The translations under genes were made by a program, and so were the position numbers. A stretch of 5,848 nucleotides of DNA, taken from IMG/VR virus record IMGVR_UViG_2671180755_000007; one strand, written 5' to 3'. The stretch is from a virus (Duplodnaviria > Heunggongvirae > Uroviricota > Caudoviricetes). The notes beneath the pieces were generated by a model, which saw only the letters and a program-made list of their open reading frames with translations, was not told the DNA's origin and searched no databases. This document shows positions 1 through 5,848 of the stretch, one piece after another. How positions within the stretch are numbered: the stretch's first letter is position 1; each line of letters opens with the position of its first letter.

Positions 1-597
1 CTGATGCGTCATGGCTTTCATCATCTGCGCCGGTAATTTTTCCCGGTACATCCGGTCCCGTTCACGTTCAAAGGTTTCTGCCAGCGGTCCGGCAGTCGTA
101 ATCTTCACCACTTCGATCGGCAGACGGTGGCGTTTCGGCCTCCCTTTGCTGTCCGCGCCGGTGGATGATGATGCCCACGGCATACGCTGCATCACATGCC
201 AGCGTCCGTTAGCCAGCCGGGTGATAAAGGCGTCCGGGATCCGTCTTTTCCCCACAATCAGCACACTGCCGCCCCCTTTCAGGGCCGCACGCTGTCCTTT
301 CTTTCTCCGTTTTCTGCGGGAAAGTCGAACGCGGGCCTCCCCCAGTTTGATGGCGGGCAGGTTGCCGGTATTGATGTAAACCTTTGCGTAAACCTTATCC
401 GGTCGTGCCGGACTTAACCGGATGCGGGCACGGATAAGACGACGGGGAACGGCCAGCTCCCTGGCAACTGAAGAGGCCGTTTTCGCAATAATGGCCCCCG
501 CCACTCGGTTCAGTGTCGTGGCAGAGGCCCGGGGAACGGCACGGCGATCAATTGCATCCAGATTTTTCATGGCCTGCGCCAGACCTTTTATTGCCAT
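1..597 (-). CDS. Z: Minor tail / tail completion protein, lambda gpZ-like; 3' end runs off the left edge of the window (about 199 codons visible, no stop)
   Basis: Minus-strand translation from ATG 597..595 gives MAIKGLAQAMKNLDAIDRRAVP...KRRKKGQRAALKGGGSVLIVGKRRIPDAFITRLANGRWHVMQRM..., which closely matches my recollection of lambda gpZ (MAIKGLEQAVENL...RRRRRKKGQRSSLKGGGSVLVVG...NGRWHVMQR). Frame stays open to position 1. AGGA-type RBS about 6-10 nt upstream; stop of the upstream gene (TGA 602..600) lies 2 nt before the ATG. Not in the supplied ORF track because it lacks a stop inside the window. Confidence 0.85.
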   Translation of the reverse strand, partial: MAIKGLAQAMKNLDAIDRRAVPRASATTLNRVAGAIIAKTASSVARELAVPRRLIRARIRLSPARPDKVYAKVYINTGNLPAIKLGEARVRLSRRKRRKKGQRAALKGGGSVLIVGKRRIPDAFITRLANGRWHVMQRMPWASSSTGADSKGRPKRHRLPIEVVKITTAGPLAETFERERDRMYREKLPAQMMKAMTHQ

Positions 598-599
598 AC

Positions 600-824
600 T
601 CATTCCTGTTCGACAAAAATCCGGGGTTTACCGTTGTACGTGTCATAACGGGTCACCGTCAGTGTGCGCCCCGCAAACACAACAACATCATGACGGGCCG
701 GACGGTACCGGGCTGAAAACACCACCAGTGACAACTGGCTGCCCGAAAGCGCCCCCATCTCCGCGGACTCTTCCTCCGGCATCACGTCGTACACGACGCC
801 GTTAATCTCCGCCTGTTTGCCCAT
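600..824 (-). CDS. Head-tail joining protein, lambda gpFII-like; C-terminal 74 aa visible, true start probably inside the N-masked run 827-908
   Basis: ORF 600..824 (-). Sequence GVVYDVMPEE...SQLSLVVFSARYRPARHDVV...TVTRYDTYNGKPRIFV aligns by eye to the central and C-terminal part of lambda FII (GVFDDPEN...SSPSLFVRTDEV...WVDRVSPDDGG). Its position immediately upstream of Z matches the lambda order FII-Z. The frame is open into the N run, so ATG 824 is only the first visible Met. Confidence 0.6.
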   Translation of the reverse strand: MGKQAEINGVVYDVMPEEESAEMGALSGSQLSLVVFSARYRPARHDVVVFAGRTLTVTRYDTYNGKPRIFVEQE

Positions 825-1117
825 CANNNNNNNNNNNNNNNNNNNNNNNNNNNNNNNNNNNNNNNNNNNNNNNNNNNNNNNNNNNNNNNNNNNNNNNNNN
901 NNNNNNNNACCGCGCCGGACTGAATGTCGTCAGCAGACTGTTTGGGCAGCAGGAACACGCCTTCGGCAAAACCGTCACCGGCCTCACCGGCAGGAATATC
1001 GGTAATGGCCACGGCCACCATACTGCCGACCACCACCGCAGCACCGCTCAGGATGGTCTGATCTCCGGCATTCACCAGTTCAATGGTGGTACCGTCCTGT
1101 ACAAAATTTTTCGCCAT
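824..1117 (-). CDS. Small phage head protein at the post-capsid position, putative head decoration/cement protein (DUF2190-like); 3' end hidden in the N run
   Basis: ORF 824..1117 (-), ATG 1117..1115 preceded by GGAGAAACAGCATT (RBS spacing about 8 nt). The N-terminus MAKNFVQDGTTIELVNAGDQTIL... and Gly/Ala/Val-rich composition resemble, from memory, the small DUF2190-type proteins encoded just after the capsid gene in lambdoid prophages. Only 69 residues are readable; the TGA at 826..824 is merely the first stop after the mask. Confidence 0.5.
   Translation of the reverse strand: MAKNFVQDGTTIELVNAGDQTILSGAAVVVGSMVAVAITDIPAGEAGDGFAEGVFLLPKQSADDIQSGAXXXXXXXXXXXXXXXXXXXXXXXXXXXX
827..908. other. 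Run of 82 N (masked or unresolved sequence) at the junction between the small post-capsid gene and the FII-like gene
   Basis: Literal n characters in the sequence. Both flanking minus-strand reading frames run into it without a stop. Confidence 0.99.
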
Positions 1118-1133
1118 AATGCTGTTTCTCCGG

Positions 1134-1156
1134 ACAGCCCCTGTGGGGCTGTTTTT
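1134..1156 (+). terminator. GC-rich hairpin (8-bp stem ACAGCCCC/GGGGCTGT, 3-nt loop) followed by a T-run on the plus strand; terminator-like for plus-strand (antisense) transcription, or a 5' stem-loop just upstream of the RBS in the minus-strand mRNA
   Basis: Read directly: 1134-1141 ACAGCCCC, loop TGT, 1145-1152 GGGGCTGT, then TTTT at 1153-1156. On the minus strand the same hairpin sits about 17 nt upstream of ATG 1117 and is not followed by a U-tract. Confidence 0.4.
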
Positions 1157-1163
1157 CAGGCAT

Positions 1164-1182
1164 AAAAAAAGCCCTTTCGGGC
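1164..1182 (-). terminator. Weak intrinsic terminator or attenuator after the capsid gene (GCCC-GAAA-GGGC hairpin with GNRA-type loop, followed by U7 on the minus strand)
   Basis: Minus-strand reading GCCCGAAAGGGC (1182..1171) then TTTTTTT (1170..1164), beginning 23 nt after the capsid stop codon (1207..1205). The stem is only 4 bp, so at best partial termination is expected. Confidence 0.4.
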
Positions 1183-1204
1183 AGTGATTGTGATAACGCG
1201 GTTA

Positions 1205-3214
1205 TCAGGCCACCGACGAACGCACCAGCCCGCGCCAGTCAAGTGGTGCCACTCCGGCATCAATACGGATTTTTGTGGCAATGCCGTCAGTGGTGAAACC
1301 TTCCTGCTGATCAATGTATGGCGTGTCCACACCATCCAGCCAGGCCACTTCAATGGTGTCAGTGCCCTGTGCCGCCGCCAGATACCAGGTTTTCGGGTCT
1401 GCCGCATCAAGACGCGCTTCTGCAATCACCTCAGCAAAGTTCTGGATAGGGTTAATGACACCGGCGTTTGCATCCGCCCCTTTCACACTGGCCGATTTGA
1501 TGGTCTGGTTCGCCACCGTCTCCAGTGCCACCGGTACCAGCATAAAGGCCGGACGGATATTCAGGGCACGATCGCCTTCTTTCTGCAGGCGCATCATCTG
1601 ACGGGCCGCATCCAGTCCGGAAACGGAGATCCCCCCGGTGGCAATATTTTTGTGATCGGCATGGAACAGCGCCTTACCGTCGGACAGTTTCGGGTTATCC
1701 GTCAGCACCTTGTAGACCAGGTCACCAATCGTTGCCTTCGCCGCACGCCCCATCTTCATCGGCACGTCCACCAGCATATTCAGATCATCATTGATAATGG
1801 CCTGGCGGGTGATGGAGAAAATCTCCCCGTAAGTGGCCAGTGCAATGGTCTCCTTGCGATCTGAGGTGGTGATGTATTTATACTCCGCCCCCTCACGAAC
1901 CTGGCGCAGAGAACCAAAACCGCCCATCCCCACGCGATACGCTGTTTTGAAGTCTGACAGGCGTCCCTTACGGGTCCACTTCTGGAAGGTTTCTTCTGAT
2001 TCCTCCCAGCCCTGGATCAGCCCCTTGTTCGACACATCCAGCAGAATATTGCCAAAATCAGAGGTGCTGTGCGTCAGCGCCAGCCCGACCATCTGCATGG
2101 GGTTATAACTGGCCACCCCAATACCGCGCTCCGTCAGTGACATGCGAGCCCATTCACGCAGGGTCATCCCGTTATAGGCGTTATCCTTCTCGACATTTTC
2201 AAATCCGGCACGGGCCAGCATCGCCTGGCGGATCCCGTCCCCCACAAAATTGCCGTTTCCGGCATAAATATGGGCCGGTGTATTTTTGTTGGTCGGCGAG
2301 GACTCCTTGCCCATTTCATTCAGCAGACGTTCACGGGCCATTTCCAGCGAACAGTCAGGATCAGCCACGCACTGTGCCTGAAGCGTCTGATAGCGACCGC
2401 CGAACATGGCAAACAGATCGTTAATGCCTGACATGCGGGCTTTCTGCTCAGCCATAACGCGGGCGCGAATGGTCGCCTCATCAGACACTGCCGGTACCGG
2501 TGATGGTTCTGTTACCGCCGGTGCAGGGATTGTCACTGTGGTATCACGCGGGGCACTGTTGCGTGGCGGAGTAATCATGTTTCGGATGGATTCCGGCATC
2601 TTTTTAAATTCCTCTGTACGTTTTGACTGAATACATGCCATTGCCTCAACAGCGGGTGTCACCTGGTCAGCAAATCCGTGTGCCAGACATTCGGCACCGG
2701 ACATCCAGGTTTCATCCGCCAGCATGGCGGCAATTTCATCGGTGGTTTTTCCGGTTTTCTGCGCATAGGCTGGCAACAGTACCGATTCGACTTTATCCAG
2801 CAAATCGGCATAACTGCGCATATCCTCAGCATCCCCGCCACTGAATCCCCATGGCTTATGGATCATCATGAAGGCATTTTCCGGCATAATGACCGTATCA
2901 CCGGCCATCGCAATCACAGATGCCATCGAGGCGGCAACGCCATCCACATACACGGTAATGGTCGCCCCCTGATTTTTCAGGGCATTAAAAATGGCGATGC
3001 CTTCAAAGACATCGCCACCCGGTGAATTGATATGGAGATTAATGTGGGTGATATCACCCAGNNNNNNNNNNNNNNNNNNNNNNNNNNNNNNNNNNNNNNN
3101 NNNNNNNNNNNNNNNNNNNNNNNNNNNNNNNNNNNNNNNNNNNNNNNNNNNNNNNNNNNNNNNNNNNNNNNNNNNNNCCGGCACGCACCCAGTCAGATTC
3201 TGTCGCTGCACCAC
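1205..3214 (-). CDS. Prohead protease (ClpP/S14-like) fused to a linker and an HK97-fold major capsid protein; 5' end uncertain because of the N run 3062-3177
   Basis: ORF 1205..3214 (-), 669 codons. The N-terminal region after the mask has a ClpP-like signature (HINSPGGDVFEGIAIFNALK...YVDGVAASMASVIAMAGD...MIHKPW). A Pro/Ala/Thr/Val-rich linker follows (PPRNSAPRDTTVTIPAPAVTEPSPVPAV). The C-terminal roughly 380 aa look like a lambdoid/HK97-type major capsid protein. It sits in the position of lambda C-Nu3-D-E between portal and FII. ATG 3214 lies upstream of the mask and overlaps the portal frame, so the true start may be 3214 or inside the masked run. Confidence 0.85.
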   Translation of the reverse strand: MVQRQNLTGCVPXXXXXXXXXXXXXXXXXXXXXXXXXXXXXXXXXXXXXXXLGDITHINLHINSPGGDVFEGIAIFNALKNQGATITVYVDGVAASMASVIAMAGDTVIMPENAFMMIHKPWGFSGGDAEDMRSYADLLDKVESVLLPAYAQKTGKTTDEIAAMLADETWMSGAECLAHGFADQVTPAVEAMACIQSKRTEEFKKMPESIRNMITPPRNSAPRDTTVTIPAPAVTEPSPVPAVSDEATIRARVMAEQKARMSGINDLFAMFGGRYQTLQAQCVADPDCSLEMARERLLNEMGKESSPTNKNTPAHIYAGNGNFVGDGIRQAMLARAGFENVEKDNAYNGMTLREWARMSLTERGIGVASYNPMQMVGLALTHSTSDFGNILLDVSNKGLIQGWEESEETFQKWTRKGRLSDFKTAYRVGMGGFGSLRQVREGAEYKYITTSDRKETIALATYGEIFSITRQAIINDDLNMLVDVPMKMGRAAKATIGDLVYKVLTDNPKLSDGKALFHADHKNIATGGISVSGLDAARQMMRLQKEGDRALNIRPAFMLVPVALETVANQTIKSASVKGADANAGVINPIQNFAEVIAEARLDAADPKTWYLAAAQGTDTIEVAWLDGVDTPYIDQQEGFTTDGIATKIRIDAGVAPLDWRGLVRSSVA
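3062..3177. other. Run of 116 N (masked or unresolved sequence) covering the portal 3' end and the protease-capsid 5' end
   Basis: Literal n characters. Both the portal frame and the protease-capsid frame are read through it as X in the ORF track. Confidence 0.99.
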
Positions 3215-4514
3215 CCCGGATCTGAATTCTCCAGGCTTCAGCTTCCTTAACCGGGTCGATCCACGGCATCACCGGACCGGAATACGTCGCGTTATATAGC
3301 GTTTTCATCTCCACATCCGCCGGAATTTTCAGCAGACCTGCCGCAACCACCATATTCAGCCATGTCCGGTACACCGGGCGGGTTACCGCGCCAATAAAAC
3401 AGTCCTGCAGGATCAGGTAACCATCCGTGGACTCGACCAGCTCCTGCCGCTGGGCGCTGTAGGTGCCGTTATAGTTACGCGCCGCACTGGAAAAACTCAG
3501 ACGACTGCCTGCTGCCACTGCACGCAACTGGCCGTTGCGGAAAGTTTCAAGGTTGGGATTGGGACGGTCAGATTTGACCATGCCGATATCCTCGCCCTTG
3601 CGCAAATCGTCATAAATAATACCCGGGGTGATATGGACTTCCCGCTCGGTCTCTTTGATCCCCGGATCTTCATAGTCCTGTCCGTCACCTTTACGGATAT
3701 ACAGTCCCAGCGCCGCAGCAATACGCGCCGCTGTCAGTTCCGCATCCTCATACTCCTTAAGGGCACTGATCCGCATCAGCACCCCCGATAACATGGATGA
3801 GCCTCGCGTCTGATGCAGACGACGAGTGAACTTCAGGTGGATCATTTTTCCGGCAGCGATTTCTTTCGTATCACTCTGCCGGCCGCTGACCGGATAATTT
3901 TTATAAACCAGATATTTTTTCGGTCTTCCCCACTCATCAAGAAAAACCCCCTGATTCAGTCCGGCGGATTCATCAGTGCGCATGGGAACAAAATCCGGCT
4001 CCATCGCCTCAAGCCAGAATGGCACTCCCGCCGTCCGTTCCAGACCGTTTCCCGCACCACTGACCATCTGCGCAAACACTTCACCATCCCGCAGCCAGGT
4101 CCGCAGCAGTAAACGTTCAAGCACAGGACGGGTATACTGCCCTGTCACATCCGGACTCACGGACCATTCAGCCCACAAACGGCGGATATCCGCAGCCAGC
4201 TCAGCCGCCATTTCCCCGTTTTTTCGTAATGGCTGAGGCTCCACAATAATTCCCCTGGCACCAATCACCCGCTCTTCCAGCTTGTCAAACACACCAATCA
4301 CCAGGTCATGATTGATATCCAGAAAACGGGCCTGCTCCCGCAGGGAAACCGCACCGTATTTACTGAGCTGATCAGCAGAGCGATTTTCCCGCCGGGCTTT
4401 ATGTGTCCGGGTCGGTTTCACCGCCTCATAGGCCATGATTAACGCCCTTGAACGCAGTCTGGCTGCTTTCCACCTAGGGGAAAACACGCCGATCACATCA
4501 TCAATAATTGCCAT
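3062..4514 (-). CDS. B: Portal protein, lambda gpB family; 3' end lies within or just beyond the N run (about 445 aa readable)
   Basis: ORF 3054..4514 (-), ATG 4514..4512 with a GAGG RBS about 6-9 nt upstream. Its size (445 readable residues, about 486 to the ORF-track stop) is portal-like, and it sits between W and the protease-capsid gene as in the lambda order A-W-B-C. The start overlaps the W stop as TAATG. Family assignment is from synteny and general recollection of gpB-like portals, not from a search. Confidence 0.85.
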
Positions 4515-4726
4515 TAAAACCTCGCCAGTTTAAATCCCGGTTTTCCCCGCCTGCGGCTCACCATCGCGGCAAGCCTGCGTTCCCACTCCTGACGTCCGGC
4601 GCGGATCTGAGAAAGGCTTTCCAGCGTCAGTTGCTGCCCGTTGAAGGTGACAGACTTTCCCTCCAGTACGGCCATTTCCGCTTCACGGTACCGCTGTATC
4701 ATTTCTCTGGCTTCTTCTGTGCTCAC
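4514..4726 (-). CDS. W: Head completion / head-tail joining protein, lambda gpW-like; start re-assigned to GTG 4726 (70 aa) rather than the ORF-track ATG 4750
   Basis: The C-terminus ...LAAMVSRRRGKPGFKLARF resembles the lambda gpW C-terminus (...RRRGPAGFYV) as I recall it. GTG at 4726..4724 overlaps the terminase TGA (4725..4723) as GTGA and is preceded by a perfect AGGAGG (4738..4733) with a 6-nt spacer. The resulting 70-aa product matches the lambda gpW size (68 aa). Stop TAA at 4516..4514. Confidence 0.8.
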   Translation of the reverse strand: MSTEEAREMIQRYREAEMAVLEGKSVTFNGQQLTLESLSQIRAGRQEWERRLAAMVSRRRGKPGFKLARF

Positions 4727-5848
4727 AACCAGCCTCCTGATGTTATCCATGGATTATCTTCCGCACGCTCCGTCCGCAGTTTTTTCTTCCGGCGACGGCG
4801 TTTTTCTGCCCCGGCCGTCAGTTCCGGGGATACCGTTTCACCAGAACGCTCCTGCGGGAAGACGAGCCACGTTTCCCGCTGTGCCCAGTCCGGTGCGGAG
4901 GGCCAGCGGATCTTTTCGTAACCATGCAGAACGGCAAGCGCATCCGCATAAACCAGCAGGTCAAACGCTTCGTTAGCGCCCCTGCCCGGTTTTCGCCATT
5001 TTCCGTCACTGCCGCGCTCTTCATAGGTCAGCTCATCGTAAAACCACCGCCCCAGCCAGTCGGGAAAGTGGATATAGTTCGGCCCTGGTGTGTCACGCCA
5101 CAGGGCATTATTTACACGATCCTTAAACGCATCCGTCTGAACCAGCCACAGCGCGACATCGCCACTGGCTCTGGCACGGCGGGCACTTCTGCCGGTATTA
5201 TCCGGGAAGGTTCGGTTAATCAGCCTGTCACGGCGAAGTCCATCCCCCTTGAACAGAAACACCCTGTTGCCCAGTCCGTCACTCCGGCAACGACGCCAGA
5301 AACGATAGGCGTTATCTGTCACCCCGGCTTCCCCTCCCGTATCCACCGCCATGGCCATCAGACGCATGCGCACATCCGGATCAGAAGCCAGCGGCCATGT
5401 TTTATGGAACACATCCGTCAGCAACAAATCCCAGTCCTCCGGATATGCCGCCGGATCAACCGGCAGACTTTCACCGTTGGGACTGCAGCGCAGTGAATGC
5501 CGGATGTTGTAGCGATCAACAATCCAGCGTTCCCCCTGCTCTCCGTATCCGGTGATCTGCACAACAAAACGGCGATTTTTACCGCCCTGTACGTCAACCG
5601 TTGCCTCAATAAAACGCACACCATCCGGCACAGATCGCCGGGGAAACGGCTCGGCACGCTGTTCAAGCAGTTCACTTTTACGCTGTTCCGTGGCTGAACG
5701 GGGCAGATAGGGTCGTCCGATATCGGTGTTCACCACCGCTTTCAGGGTCTCTTCACTGCCGGTTCGCTCATACTCTTCTTCTGCCGCCAGCAGTTTAAAA
5801 ATCAGTTGTTCCCAGGTCTGAAACGCCGCAGCTGGCCCCTCCATCCAA
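4723..5848 (-). CDS. A: Terminase large subunit, lambda gpA-like, C-terminal portion (at least 374 aa); 5' end runs off the right edge of the window
   Basis: ORF 4723..5844 (-) with the frame still open at 5848. Basic C-terminal tail ...KRRRRKKKLRTERAEDNPWITSGGWL, followed immediately by W and then the portal, which is the lambda order A-W-B. Size and position are consistent with the C-terminal half of a gpA-type large terminase. Confidence 0.85.
   Translation of the reverse strand, partial: WMEGPAAAFQTWEQLIFKLLAAEEEYERTGSEETLKAVVNTDIGRPYLPRSATEQRKSELLEQRAEPFPRRSVPDGVRFIEATVDVQGGKNRRFVVQITGYGEQGERWIVDRYNIRHSLRCSPNGESLPVDPAAYPEDWDLLLTDVFHKTWPLASDPDVRMRLMAMAVDTGGEAGVTDNAYRFWRRCRSDGLGNRVFLFKGDGLRRDRLINRTFPDNTGRSARRARASGDVALWLVQTDAFKDRVNNALWRDTPGPNYIHFPDWLGRWFYDELTYEERGSDGKWRKPGRGANEAFDLLVYADALAVLHGYEKIRWPSAPDWAQRETWLVFPQERSGETVSPELTAGAEKRRRRKKKLRTERAEDNPWITSGGWL
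4733..4738 (-). promoter_or_regulatory. Shine-Dalgarno sequence (AGGAGG) for the gpW-like gene, embedded in the 3' end of the terminase gene
   Basis: Minus-strand AGGAGG 6 nt upstream of GTG 4726; read directly from the sequence. Confidence 0.6.

Follow-up and report, generated by a model that had tools for sequence, protein, structure and literature searches.

A Gifsy-2-type protease-scaffold-capsid fusion gene of an E. coli prophage with a probable second, internal translation start

The long open reading frame found on the minus strand of the 5,848-nucleotide stretch analysed here (the window) belongs to a Gifsy-2-type lambdoid prophage of E. coli, in which it serves head assembly; genes of this kind are already known. 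From the sequence of this gene and its relatives we propose that what looks like a single tripartite gene is probably two nested genes, an internal start giving a protease-free scaffold-capsid protein beside the full-length protein. The nested product, of 464 amino acids, is likely because the internal ATG and its Shine-Dalgarno (SD) sequence are conserved, a synonymous site next to them is constrained, mRNA structure is minimal there, and a second fusion family (NF045541) shows the signature as well. This argues against an obligatory one-to-one delivery of the protease. The sequence-only reading of this DNA had supposed that a protease comes with every capsid subunit; a conserved internal SD and ATG at the protease/scaffold junction make this doubtful.

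The fusion in itself adds little: experiments on Gifsy-2 date from 2010, the family is curated as NF045540, and such genes are extremely common. If the nested start is real, the dose of protease per procapsid would follow from the relative use of two translation starts and not be fixed at one per subunit. Its confirmation would explain how a phage with a protease-capsid fusion avoids packing one protease per subunit, and would join the "nested scaffold" logic of lambda and Mu and the "delta-capsid" logic of HK97 within one gene.

Limits of the fusion gene in the window

The minus-strand frame ends at a TGA (1205-1207), and its unmasked part, 1208-3061, runs through 618 codons with no interruption (Table 1). 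Beyond it lies a run of 116 N. In phages ASU11, 1720a-02 and VT1-Sakai, where both flanks of this run are 99-100% identical to the window, it corresponds to 278 nt (4963-5240 of L001); the second mask of the window (82 N, 827-908) corresponds to 165 bases in these same phages. As 116 and 278 are both 2 modulo 3, the reading frame is preserved across the mask, and with the frame kept over 278 bases the reading frame from the GTG at 3214 would count 723 codons, not 669. Bases 3178-3214 are part of the 3' portion of the portal gene and are read there in another frame. Of the single 669-codon polypeptide first described, the one frame with both domains therefore stands; its length and its start at 3214 result from reading through the mask.

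In the relatives, the stretch that matches the mask contains the portal stop and two candidate starts for the fusion gene. An ATG that overlaps the stop of the portal gene, ATGAAGAATAA, would give a protein of 659 aa; a GTG lying 15 codons further upstream, after AAAGGAGG, would give 674 aa. The 5' end of the fusion gene itself is outside the visible sequence of the window, and the start options are those of the relatives.

Table 1. Features of the head-gene region, in positions of the window
Feature	Position	Strand	Remarks
Cement/decoration gene, visible portion	909..1117	-	end under the 827-908 mask
Intergenic region with two small hairpins	1118..1204	-	GCCCgaaaGGGC then U7; CAGCCCCacaGGGGCUG; 5' of the cement SD and ATG
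Fusion gene (protease-scaffold-capsid), visible portion	1205..3061	-	618 codons and TGA
HK97-fold major capsid protein domain, Mu gpT-like	1208..2248	-	profile and structure matches
Second disordered segment, GKESSPTNKNTPAHIYAGNGN	2249..2311	-	nested-product residues 97-117
Helical middle domain	2312..2479	-	nested-product residues 41-96, about 55 residues, three predicted helices
Pro/Thr/Ala-rich spacer	2480..2578	-	predicted disordered, hypervariable
In-frame internal ATG (Met of FKKMPES)	2597..2599	-	proposed start of the nested 464-aa scaffold-capsid product (1208-2599)
Internal SD-like core GAGGA	2610..2614	-	ends 10 nt 5' of the internal ATG
ClpP-type serine protease domain	2657..3061	-	first 45-55 residues or so under the mask
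Mask, 116 N	3062..3177	.	conceals where the portal gene stops and where the fusion gene truly starts; length not preserved
Lambda-family portal gene, visible portion	3178..4514	-	ATG at 4514; stop under the mask

Domains of the fusion protein

The N-terminal part is matched by PF00574 CLP_protease over visible residues 5-135 (3.3e-35, 122.1 bits for a cut-off of 20.2) and by NF045542, a model of ClpP-related head maturation proteases (8.2e-59, 198.2 bits for a cut-off of 120). ClpP chains of the PDB were matched as well, the best being 6hwm (7.3e-18), with the Ser and the His aligned. This serine (2927-2929, in AASMAS) and this histidine (2858-2860, in MMIHKP) are invariant, and the position of the catalytic Asp of ClpP aligns with a conserved Glu (2711-2713) which has an Asp before it (DETW, 2711-2716). 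In alignment A1 the three residues, S86, H109 and E158 in P0003 numbering, do not vary. Scores against the models of cellular ClpP equivalogs remained far below their cut-offs (TIGR00493: 60.7 bits for 308.6). Judged by these scores, the N-terminal domain is ClpP-related and not a bona fide ClpP. The other Pfam matches of the protein, SDH_protease and NfeD1b_N, are weak.

Neither ClpP nor capsid models matched visible residues 136-325, a central part of about 200 residues as in Gifsy-2-type genes. It begins with a spacer whose columns are unconserved and rich in indels in alignment A1, and which has a pLDDT of 33-48 in the AlphaFold2 (AF2) model of the nested product (residues 1-35). The Pro/Ala/Thr-rich linker that had been placed at about 2477-2580 is indeed there, at about 2480-2578, indel-rich and with pLDDT below 50. 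The layout of two domains and a linker proposed with it has to be revised: in the AF2 model a helical domain stands between the spacer and the capsid fold, so that the gene is made of three parts. The helices of this domain (41-64, 71-79 and 85-96) are predicted with a pLDDT of 85-90. It matched no Pfam family and has its homologue in the central portion of the NF045541 fusions; we take it as a putative scaffold-like or delta-like domain. A second segment predicted to be disordered (pLDDT below 50 at nested-product residues 100-115) directly precedes the first helix of the capsid fold, and is a candidate region for the maturation cleavage that would release the capsid protein.

The C-terminal part is matched by PF25209 Phage_capsid_4 at visible residues 326-615 (6.5e-56, 191 bits for a cut-off of 27) and by PF10124 (5.4e-10, 39.5 bits for a cut-off of 20.1). 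Searched against the PDB as a single sequence it gave weak matches, and as a profile significant ones: the nested product matched solved capsid proteins of the Mu GpT type (8rkx/8rkc, 1.5e-9; 9jod, 1.7e-7). For the nested product the AF2 model reached a pLDDT of 83.3; it was built on an alignment of 120 sequences, obtained after a second homology search seeded from the most distant relative. Foldseek returned 327 matches in the PDB at E<=1e-3 with this model, the capsids of HK97, SaPI1 and JBD30 among them. The best 50 of the 327 are all HK97-fold capsid or encapsulin shells (probability 1.00, E from 7.7e-9, target-normalised TM-score up to 0.64). Profile searches on both halves thus recover a ClpP fold on the N-terminal side and an HK97 fold on the C-terminal side, and the predicted structure of the nested product, among its best 50 matches, resembles HK97-fold shells only. 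The description of a ClpP-like protease, a low-complexity spacer and an HK97-fold capsid protein in one polypeptide is borne out by Pfam, NF045540, the PDB and Foldseek.

Identity and spread of the fusion family

The visible protein matches NF045540 scaf_prot_MCP1 at model positions 28-651 of 652 (962.5 bits, E 1.3e-289, cut-off 475) and phrog_133 (PHROG 133) with 1077 bits. It scores 418.7 bits against NF045541 (residues 157-615), below the cut-off of 525. The visible part is 100% identical to proteins of Stx2a phages and 63.0% identical to the Gifsy-2 protein (query residues 1-617, tblastn against NC_010393.1). Of the 5426 complete genomes of E. coli, 2066 contain related copies, and homologues form more than 5400 clusters at 90% identity, so many that the ORF cannot be a product of chance. 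Outside E. coli, in other Gammaproteobacteria, all 80 of 80 loci carry full-length fusions; the architecture is also found in inducible phages.

PGAP labels identical E. coli copies [quoted passage not shown]. Other public labels of the fusion gene include "major capsid protein", "Clp protease", "head-tail preconnector Nu3", "scaffold" and even "terminase", and the annotated start choices range from 640 to 707 aa. With gene labels so mixed and start calls inconsistent, the practical worth of the present analysis is in annotation.

Evidence for an internal start

The internal Met is kept in 77 of 79 genes, every one of them with an SD core. At other in-frame ATGs such a core was found in 3.2% of 1776 cases, and at seven other conserved-Met columns in 0-8%. 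The third position of codon -5 is a G in all 65 non-redundant genes, which ranks it 1 among 47 comparable columns (mean 0.40, sd 0.20); the SD core is retained while the residues that it encodes vary. In the two genes of the 79 that depart from the rule, SD and ATG have been relocated, in frame, within the spacer. Since the compared sequences are phylogenetically related, these counts are not independent events; the column controls, taken within the alignment, share the same tree, which lessens the issue.

Across the whole gene, the 15 windows with the least structure all fall between -7 and +8 codons from the internal ATG, where the gene is also richest in AT. In single sequences the low-structure signal at this ATG is in the top 8% or so, and it may come in part from the peptide specified at this place, which is rich in Lys, Glu, Phe and Asn. 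With about -6 kcal/mol, compared with -11.6 for the 5' start, the internal SD is weak, and its spacing of 10-11 nt to the ATG in the ClpP family is above the optimum. In Gifsy-2 the arrangement is GAGGAG, 9 nt and an ATG at Met221, from which a product would begin MPQSIKGM; the one predicted for the window would begin MPESIRNM.

The NF045541 family, whose protease is unrelated, has the same SD and ATG signature in 47 of 48 genes (background 6.1%), with an SD spacing of 7-8 nt. The recurrence of this design in the NF045541 fusions, despite their unrelated protease, suggests either inheritance from nested-scaffold protease genes of the Mu or lambda kind, or repeated selection. In Mu the scaffold is translated from an in-frame start within the protease gene (PMC4378225). 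The literature surveyed on nested starts in this type of gene, with Effantin et al. 2010 outside its scope, gave only the Mu/PaMx73 precedent, and the terms "internal", "Shine-Dalgarno" and "start codon" do not occur in PMC8508860, which describes gp5 of phage MD8. A -1 frameshift at the TTT AAA AAG before the internal ATG was also considered and rejected, the relatives having TTT GAA AAG, TTC GAC GCT and others at this place.

Proposed mechanism

The explanation that best accounts for the whole, and in which we have good confidence, is a Gifsy-2-type fusion head gene with two starts, whose products co-assemble, are cleaved by the protease and then bind cement protein. The gene specifies, in this order, a ClpP-fold protease, a disordered spacer, a small helical scaffold-like domain, a second disordered stretch and an HK97-fold, Mu-gpT-like capsid protein. 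Translation from a first start within the end of the portal gene, either the GTG with AAAGGAGG or the ATG overlapping the portal stop, would give the full-length protein of about 74 kDa. The second start, very probably the internal ATG at 2597-2599, would give a protease-free protein of about 51 kDa made of spacer, scaffold and capsid parts, comparable to HK97 gp5 (delta domain and capsid protein). Both products would co-assemble on the portal through their identical scaffold and capsid parts and form a T=7 procapsid, with the protease and scaffold turned to the inside. Cuts by the protease in the disordered segments would then release both the protease itself and the scaffold part and leave a capsid protein of about 350 residues. 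The shell would expand, and trimers of the downstream cement protein would bind to it, as reported for Gifsy-2. In this scheme we infer the use of the internal start, the cleavage sites and the co-assembly.

Alternative readings

A single product, as in the sequence-only reading, is the first alternative, and we consider it unlikely. Each capsid subunit would carry its own protease, 415 per T=7 shell, all excising themselves, and the internal GAGGA and ATG would stay unused. The frame is indeed open throughout, the relatives have a strong 5' Shine-Dalgarno sequence, the internal one is weak and distant, and the second product is a prediction from sequence; by a rough volume estimate, 415 copies of the internal part, about 35 kDa each, could find room in a T=7 procapsid. 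This reading nevertheless leaves unexplained the synonymous G in 65 of 65 genes, the Met kept in 77 of 79 genes beside a hypervariable spacer, the joint relocation of SD and ATG in both exceptions and the recurrence of the signature in a family with an unrelated protease. Much less probable still is that the SD-like motif acts as a programmed translational pause, giving the protease time to fold at the domain boundary, with no start at all. The motif lies exactly at the end of the ClpP domain, and in the ClpP family its distance to the ATG is longer than the optimum for initiation. A pause, however, could do without an ATG at constant spacing, whereas this ATG is conserved and, in the exceptions, moves with the SD; in addition the spacing in the second family (NF045541) is canonical, and weak structure at the site is typical of starts. 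SD-driven pausing within genes is itself disputed.

We give practically no weight to the possibility that the long frame is an artefact, that is two genes joined by a sequencing error or a hidden frameshift, or a decayed prophage pseudogene. The masked run does lie inside the frame as first read, and some copies are truly broken, for instance by IS629 in O157 Sakai Sp15 / VT1-Sakai. Both domains are however contained in the 618 unmasked and uninterrupted codons, so that the fusion holds whatever the mask conceals, and in the relatives the frame stays open across the corresponding stretch: the hidden stop or frameshift that could have split the gene in two was not found there. The same architecture is shared by the homologous clusters, by the 80 loci of other genera and by inducible phages. 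Against VT1-Sakai the window aligns at 100% with no gap, and it does not contain the IS.

Comparison with known systems

The arrangement had been said to be known from some enterobacterial lambdoid prophages, and rightly so. According to papers that cite Effantin et al. 2010 (Virology 402:355), such as PMC8538268 and PMC12315714, a "tripartite capsid gene" (STM1034.3n) of Salmonella phage Gifsy-2 fuses protease and coat, its product is processed to a mature capsid protein, and the T=7 particles carry a decoration protein in trimers. Gifsy-2 and the window have in common one ORF that runs from the ClpP-like protease over a central region of some 200 residues to the capsid protein, a lambda-type portal gene upstream, a small decoration gene downstream and the internal SD and ATG. 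They differ in sequence (63% identity) and in the length and composition of the spacer. From NF045540 and PHROG 133 the window protein shows no material difference, about 27 N-terminal positions of the model being under the mask. In the Pseudomonas phage MD8 / F10 group, gp5 likewise unites protease, scaffold and major capsid protein in one gene of 693 residues, with a ClpP-like N-terminus and a Mu/HK97-like C-terminus (PMC8508860). The window protein shares 59% identity with F10 and its relatives; host and sequence differ.

In lambda the same functions (protease, scaffold, capsid, trimeric cement) are provided by C, Nu3, E and D, and the scaffold is translated in frame from within the protease gene (Shaw and Murialdo 1980, as cited in PMC8508860). 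If its internal start is used, the gene of the window shares this nested-scaffold logic. As in lambda, it adjoins lambda-type terminase, W and portal genes. In contrast, lambda gpC is not a close relative of the protease of the window, which belongs to Pfam CLP_protease; E is a separate gene with D located between Nu3 and E, whereas in the window the capsid protein forms part of the fusion and the cement gene comes after it. The sequence-only reading had the single ORF stand for four separate lambda genes (C, Nu3, D and E). D is not replaced, the PF09956 cement gene being separate, at 1117, and Nu3 is itself nested within C.

The capsid domain of the window resembles gpT of Mu, where Z (scaffold) starts in frame within I (protease) at the equivalent junction. 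In Mu the capsid gene T is separate, whereas the window joins protease, scaffold and capsid, and its N-terminus matches ClpP models and not Mu I. The NF045541 scaf_prot_MCP2 proteins (Ralstonia phage YO194_2, Pseudomonas phage Y8) are 33% identical to the window protein over query residues 148-615; their N-terminal protease domain is unrelated and gave no ClpP match. In HK97 gp5 the delta domain is removed by the protease, and the nested product proposed here would be a similar union of a scaffold-like domain and a capsid protein. The HK97 protease is encoded by a separate gene and has another fold, and HK97 has no cement protein.

Neighbouring genes and non-coding sequence

Upstream, the portal gene matches PF05136 (2e-80) and TIGR01539 (2.4e-122); in the 99-100% identical phages it measures 1503 nt and ends within the stretch that is masked here. 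Downstream, the cement gene matches PF09956 Phage_cement_2 (8.6e-12) and phrog_122 "head decoration" (PHROG 122, 5.5e-26), and encodes a protein of 108 aa in the relatives. An Rfam scan of the window matched no family, and promoter and terminator consensus scans of 560-3300 gave nothing relevant to the gene above the shuffled expectation. The intergenic region between the fusion gene and the cement gene has a fold energy of -33.9 kcal/mol (z -2.08), and at the corresponding site a "terminator" is annotated in phages mEp460 and Ayreon.

Domains of the fusion protein

Positions 1208-3061, which are unmasked, contain 618 codons without interruption, and both domains proposed by the sequence-only reading lie inside this visible part: Pfam CLP_protease at residues 5-135 (3.3e-35) and Phage_capsid_4 at residues 326-615 (6.5e-56). 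The fusion of protease and capsid in one polypeptide is thus independent of the masked sequence, and an artefactual fusion was excluded. The protein scores 962.5 bits against NCBIfam NF045540, a family of ClpP-type fusions (cut-off 475), and 1077 bits against PHROG 133. An alignment of the N-terminal half with experimental ClpP structures (6hwm, 7.3e-18) places the catalytic Ser (AASMAS) and His (MMIHKP) correctly, which supports the expected ClpP-like serine protease. Since the scores are far under the cut-offs of the true-ClpP equivalog models, the domain is ClpP-related, not ClpP. At the position of the ClpP catalytic Asp we observed a conserved Glu with an Asp before it (D-E-T-W, window 2711-2716, minus strand); E-T-W is at least 90% conserved among 120 relatives, and the alignment suggests that the triad may be Ser-His-Glu, or that the neighbouring Asp may be used.

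The C-terminal half was examined with a profile of 38 diverse relatives, which matches solved Mu-GpT-type capsid proteins (8rkx/8rkc 1.5e-9, 9jod 1.7e-7). AlphaFold with a shallow alignment gave a pLDDT of 36; the alignment was then deepened to 120 sequences, and residues 196-659 were modelled with a pLDDT of 83.3 and a pTM of 0.68. Foldseek comparison of this model with the PDB gave 327 hits with E<=1e-3, and every one of the top 50 is a capsid or encapsulin shell of the HK97 fold, among them HK97 itself, SaPI1, JBD30, D3 and P4. The HK97-fold capsid assignment therefore holds.

Between the two domains, the model shows more than a simple linker. Counting from the Met encoded by an internal ATG at 2597-2599, residues 1-35 are predicted to form a disordered Pro/Thr/Ala spacer, residues 41-96 three confident helices and residues 100-115 a second disordered stretch, the capsid fold beginning at about residue 118. 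The spacer is the low-complexity linker placed earlier at about 2477-2580, and it is hypervariable and rich in indels in alignments; its location stands, while the two-part gene gives way to three parts including a helical middle. This middle part matches none of the Pfam families and is homologous to the middle of the fusions of NF045541, a second family with another N-terminal protease.

In E. coli O157:H7 copies (Sakai Sp15 / VT1-Sakai, EDL933 and many others), otherwise 100% identical to the window gene, IS629/IS1203 is inserted at the equivalent of 2310-2312, where the helical middle domain meets the second disordered segment, and 3 bp are duplicated. The halves are annotated separately as 'scaffolding protein' and 'hypothetical protein'; the window copy is intact.

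Gene context and masked runs

The genes of the window form a lambdoid head module.

Genes of the head module in the window
Feature	Position	Strand	Matches or remarks
Large terminase subunit	4723 to window end	minus	
gpW-like head-tail adaptor	4514-4750	minus	phrog_118
Lambda-family portal	ATG at 4514	minus	PF05136 2e-80, TIGR01539 2.4e-122
Protease-scaffold-capsid fusion ORF	stop TGA 1205-1207	minus	between portal and cement gene
Cement/decoration gene	ATG at 1117	minus	PF09956 8.6e-12, phrog_122 5.5e-26
Gifsy-2-family head-tail gene	after cement gene	minus	PF13856

The fusion had been thought to replace lambda D as well; instead a separate cement gene lies downstream, as in Gifsy-2. In the 87-nt gap between the two genes (1118-1204, minus strand; fold energy -33.9 kcal/mol, z -2.08) small hairpins are predicted: GCCCgaaaGGGC followed by U7, then CAGCCCCacaGGGGCUG directly upstream of the cement gene's GGAGA Shine-Dalgarno (SD). 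The mEp460 and Ayreon records carry a 'terminator' annotation at the corresponding position. Possible roles of the gap are partial termination or control of mRNA stability downstream of the head gene with the highest expression.

The window contains two runs of N, 827-908 (82 N) and 3062-3177 (116 N), located exactly on gene junctions: cement-gene stop/next-gene start and portal stop/fusion-gene start, respectively. In three phages with flanking sequence 99-100% identical on either side (ASU11, 1720a-02 and VT1-Sakai), the 82 N correspond to 165 bases and the 116 N to 278 bases; by this comparison the length of the runs is not preserved. As a result, the lengths of ORFs running across them are artefactual: 669 aa for the fusion ORF, 486 aa for the 'portal', 97 aa for the 'cement' ORF and 74 aa for the ORF at 600-824. 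The corresponding lengths in relatives are 500 aa (portal), 108 aa (cement protein) and 93 aa (next gene). The frame is kept across 3062-3177, because 116 and 278 are both 2 mod 3. From the GTG at 3214 taken as start by the sequence-only reading, the ORF would have 723 codons once the 278 bases are restored, and 3178-3214 is portal coding sequence in a different frame; both the 669 codons and this start are artefacts. That reading is thus correct in essence, with length, start and number of parts in error.

In relatives, the stretch hidden at 3062-3177 includes the stop codon of the portal gene and two possible starts of the fusion gene. With the first, an ATG that overlaps this stop codon (ATGAAGAATAA), the protein has 659 aa; with the second, a GTG 15 codons upstream of that ATG and preceded by AAAGGAGG, it has 674 aa. 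A cluster of 3481 sequences has the 674-aa form as its representative, and the GTG with its strong SD is the best-supported 5' start across Enterobacterales.

A probable conserved internal start

An invariant motif, AMACIxSxRxEEFxKMP, closes the protease domain and is immediately followed by the hypervariable spacer. Its Met (ATG 2597-2599 in the window) is present in 77 of 79 fused genes, and all 77 carry GAGGA, AGGAG, AAGGA or GGAGA at a fixed distance upstream, the SD core being kept while the encoded residues vary (EE, ED, QE, KE, GD, MEN). Such a core precedes 3.2% of 1776 other in-frame ATGs, and 0-8% at seven other conserved-Met columns, compared to 100% at the motif. Synonymous sites were compared in 69 genes, after removal of any at least 95% identical in nucleotides to another. 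The third base of the codon five upstream of the ATG is G in 65/65 cases encoding Glu, Gln or Lys. This is the highest value among 47 comparable columns (mean 0.40, sd 0.20; second highest 0.75) and a synonymous-site constraint; the sequences compared are phylogenetically related and the controls come from the same tree. Predicted mRNA structure points to the same place: among 42-nt windows averaged over 64 genes, the 15 least structured gene-wide all lie at -7 to +8 codons around this ATG (mean folding energy -2.3 to -3.4 kcal/mol vs -8.0 +/- 1.7; GC content 0.37 vs 0.51). The two genes devoid of the Met also lack the SD core at the motif, and contain an in-frame ATG with a good SD slightly deeper in the spacer (GAGGA-7 nt-ATG and AGGAG-8 nt-ATG).

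The same junction is marked in NF045541 genes, the N-terminal protease of which is unrelated to that of the window: SD and ATG are present in 47/48 non-redundant genes, with a spacing of 7-8 nt and a background of 6.1% among other ATGs. Pfam does not recognize this non-ClpP domain; homology to the window gene covers the middle and capsid parts. NF045541 is a second three-in-one head gene family (loci L084, 1844-3937; L085, 1514-3502; L086-L165), and relatives are encoded in more than 567 IMG/VR loci.

We consider it probable, from these sequence comparisons, that the conserved ATG starts a protease-free scaffold-capsid product. The internal SD is weak (about -6 vs -11.6 kcal/mol for the 5' start), located 10-11 nt from the ATG in the ClpP family. 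That only the full-length protein is made seems unlikely, as this leaves unexplained both the synonymous-site constraint and the joint relocation of SD and ATG. An SD-like motif acting as a translational pause would not require an ATG, and we regard this as very improbable. A dnaX-like frameshift at TTT AAA AAG was excluded, since this sequence is not conserved. Nested scaffolds have precedents: the Mu scaffold is translated from an in-frame start within the protease gene (PMC4378225), and in lambda the Nu3 gene lies within gene C (Shaw and Murialdo 1980, as cited in PMC8508860). As the capsid domain is Mu-gpT-like, the internal start may simply have survived the joining of a capsid gene to a protease gene that already held a nested scaffold. 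Gifsy-2 has GAGGAG-9 nt-ATG at Met221 in an experimentally studied gene, for which the point may already be known or settled. With an SD and ATG conserved at the end of the protease, the earlier idea that protease is necessarily delivered with every capsid subunit becomes questionable.

Beyond the observed domains, continuous frame, family membership and gene context, we infer two primary products: the full-length protein of about 74 kDa and a nested one of about 51 kDa (464 aa), both masses being estimates from residue counts. The latter, which would resemble HK97 gp5, would consist of spacer, scaffold and capsid part. The two products would co-assemble on the portal through their common parts, with protease and scaffold parts inward. 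The protease would then cleave within disordered segments, 2249-2311 being a candidate site freeing a capsid protein of about 350 residues; shell expansion and attachment of cement trimers would follow.

Distribution and annotation

The fusion gene is already known, curated and very common. As had been suspected, the arrangement is that of enterobacterial lambdoid prophages: besides its NF045540 membership, the protein matches proteins of Stx2a-converting phages at 100% identity and that of Gifsy-2 at 63% over the whole visible length. A cryo-EM study of Gifsy-2 (Effantin et al. 2010), as described by citing papers, refers to a "tripartite capsid gene"; this phage is among those with a trimeric decoration protein at three-fold axes (PMC8538268) and is listed as T=7 (PMC8814770). 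The same protease-scaffold-MCP gene type is described in Pseudomonas phage MD8 (PMC8508860). Of 5426 complete E. coli genomes, 2066 contain related sequence, in as many as 6 copies per genome, and 80/80 loci from other Gammaproteobacteria encode the full fusion, with identity down to 45%.

PGAP names the related E. coli copies fusion protein. Other public names for the gene at 1205-3061 are mutually incompatible: major capsid protein, Clp protease ClpP, head-tail preconnector protein Nu3, protease C, scaffold protein, membrane protein and even terminase protein. Annotated lengths range from 640 to 707 aa because start calls differ. In one homologous E. coli protein of 1027 aa (P0093), the protease-capsid fusion occurs together with terminase GpA Pfam domains (PF05876, PF20454); this probably reflects an error in gene calling or assembly, or a deletion that brought head genes together.
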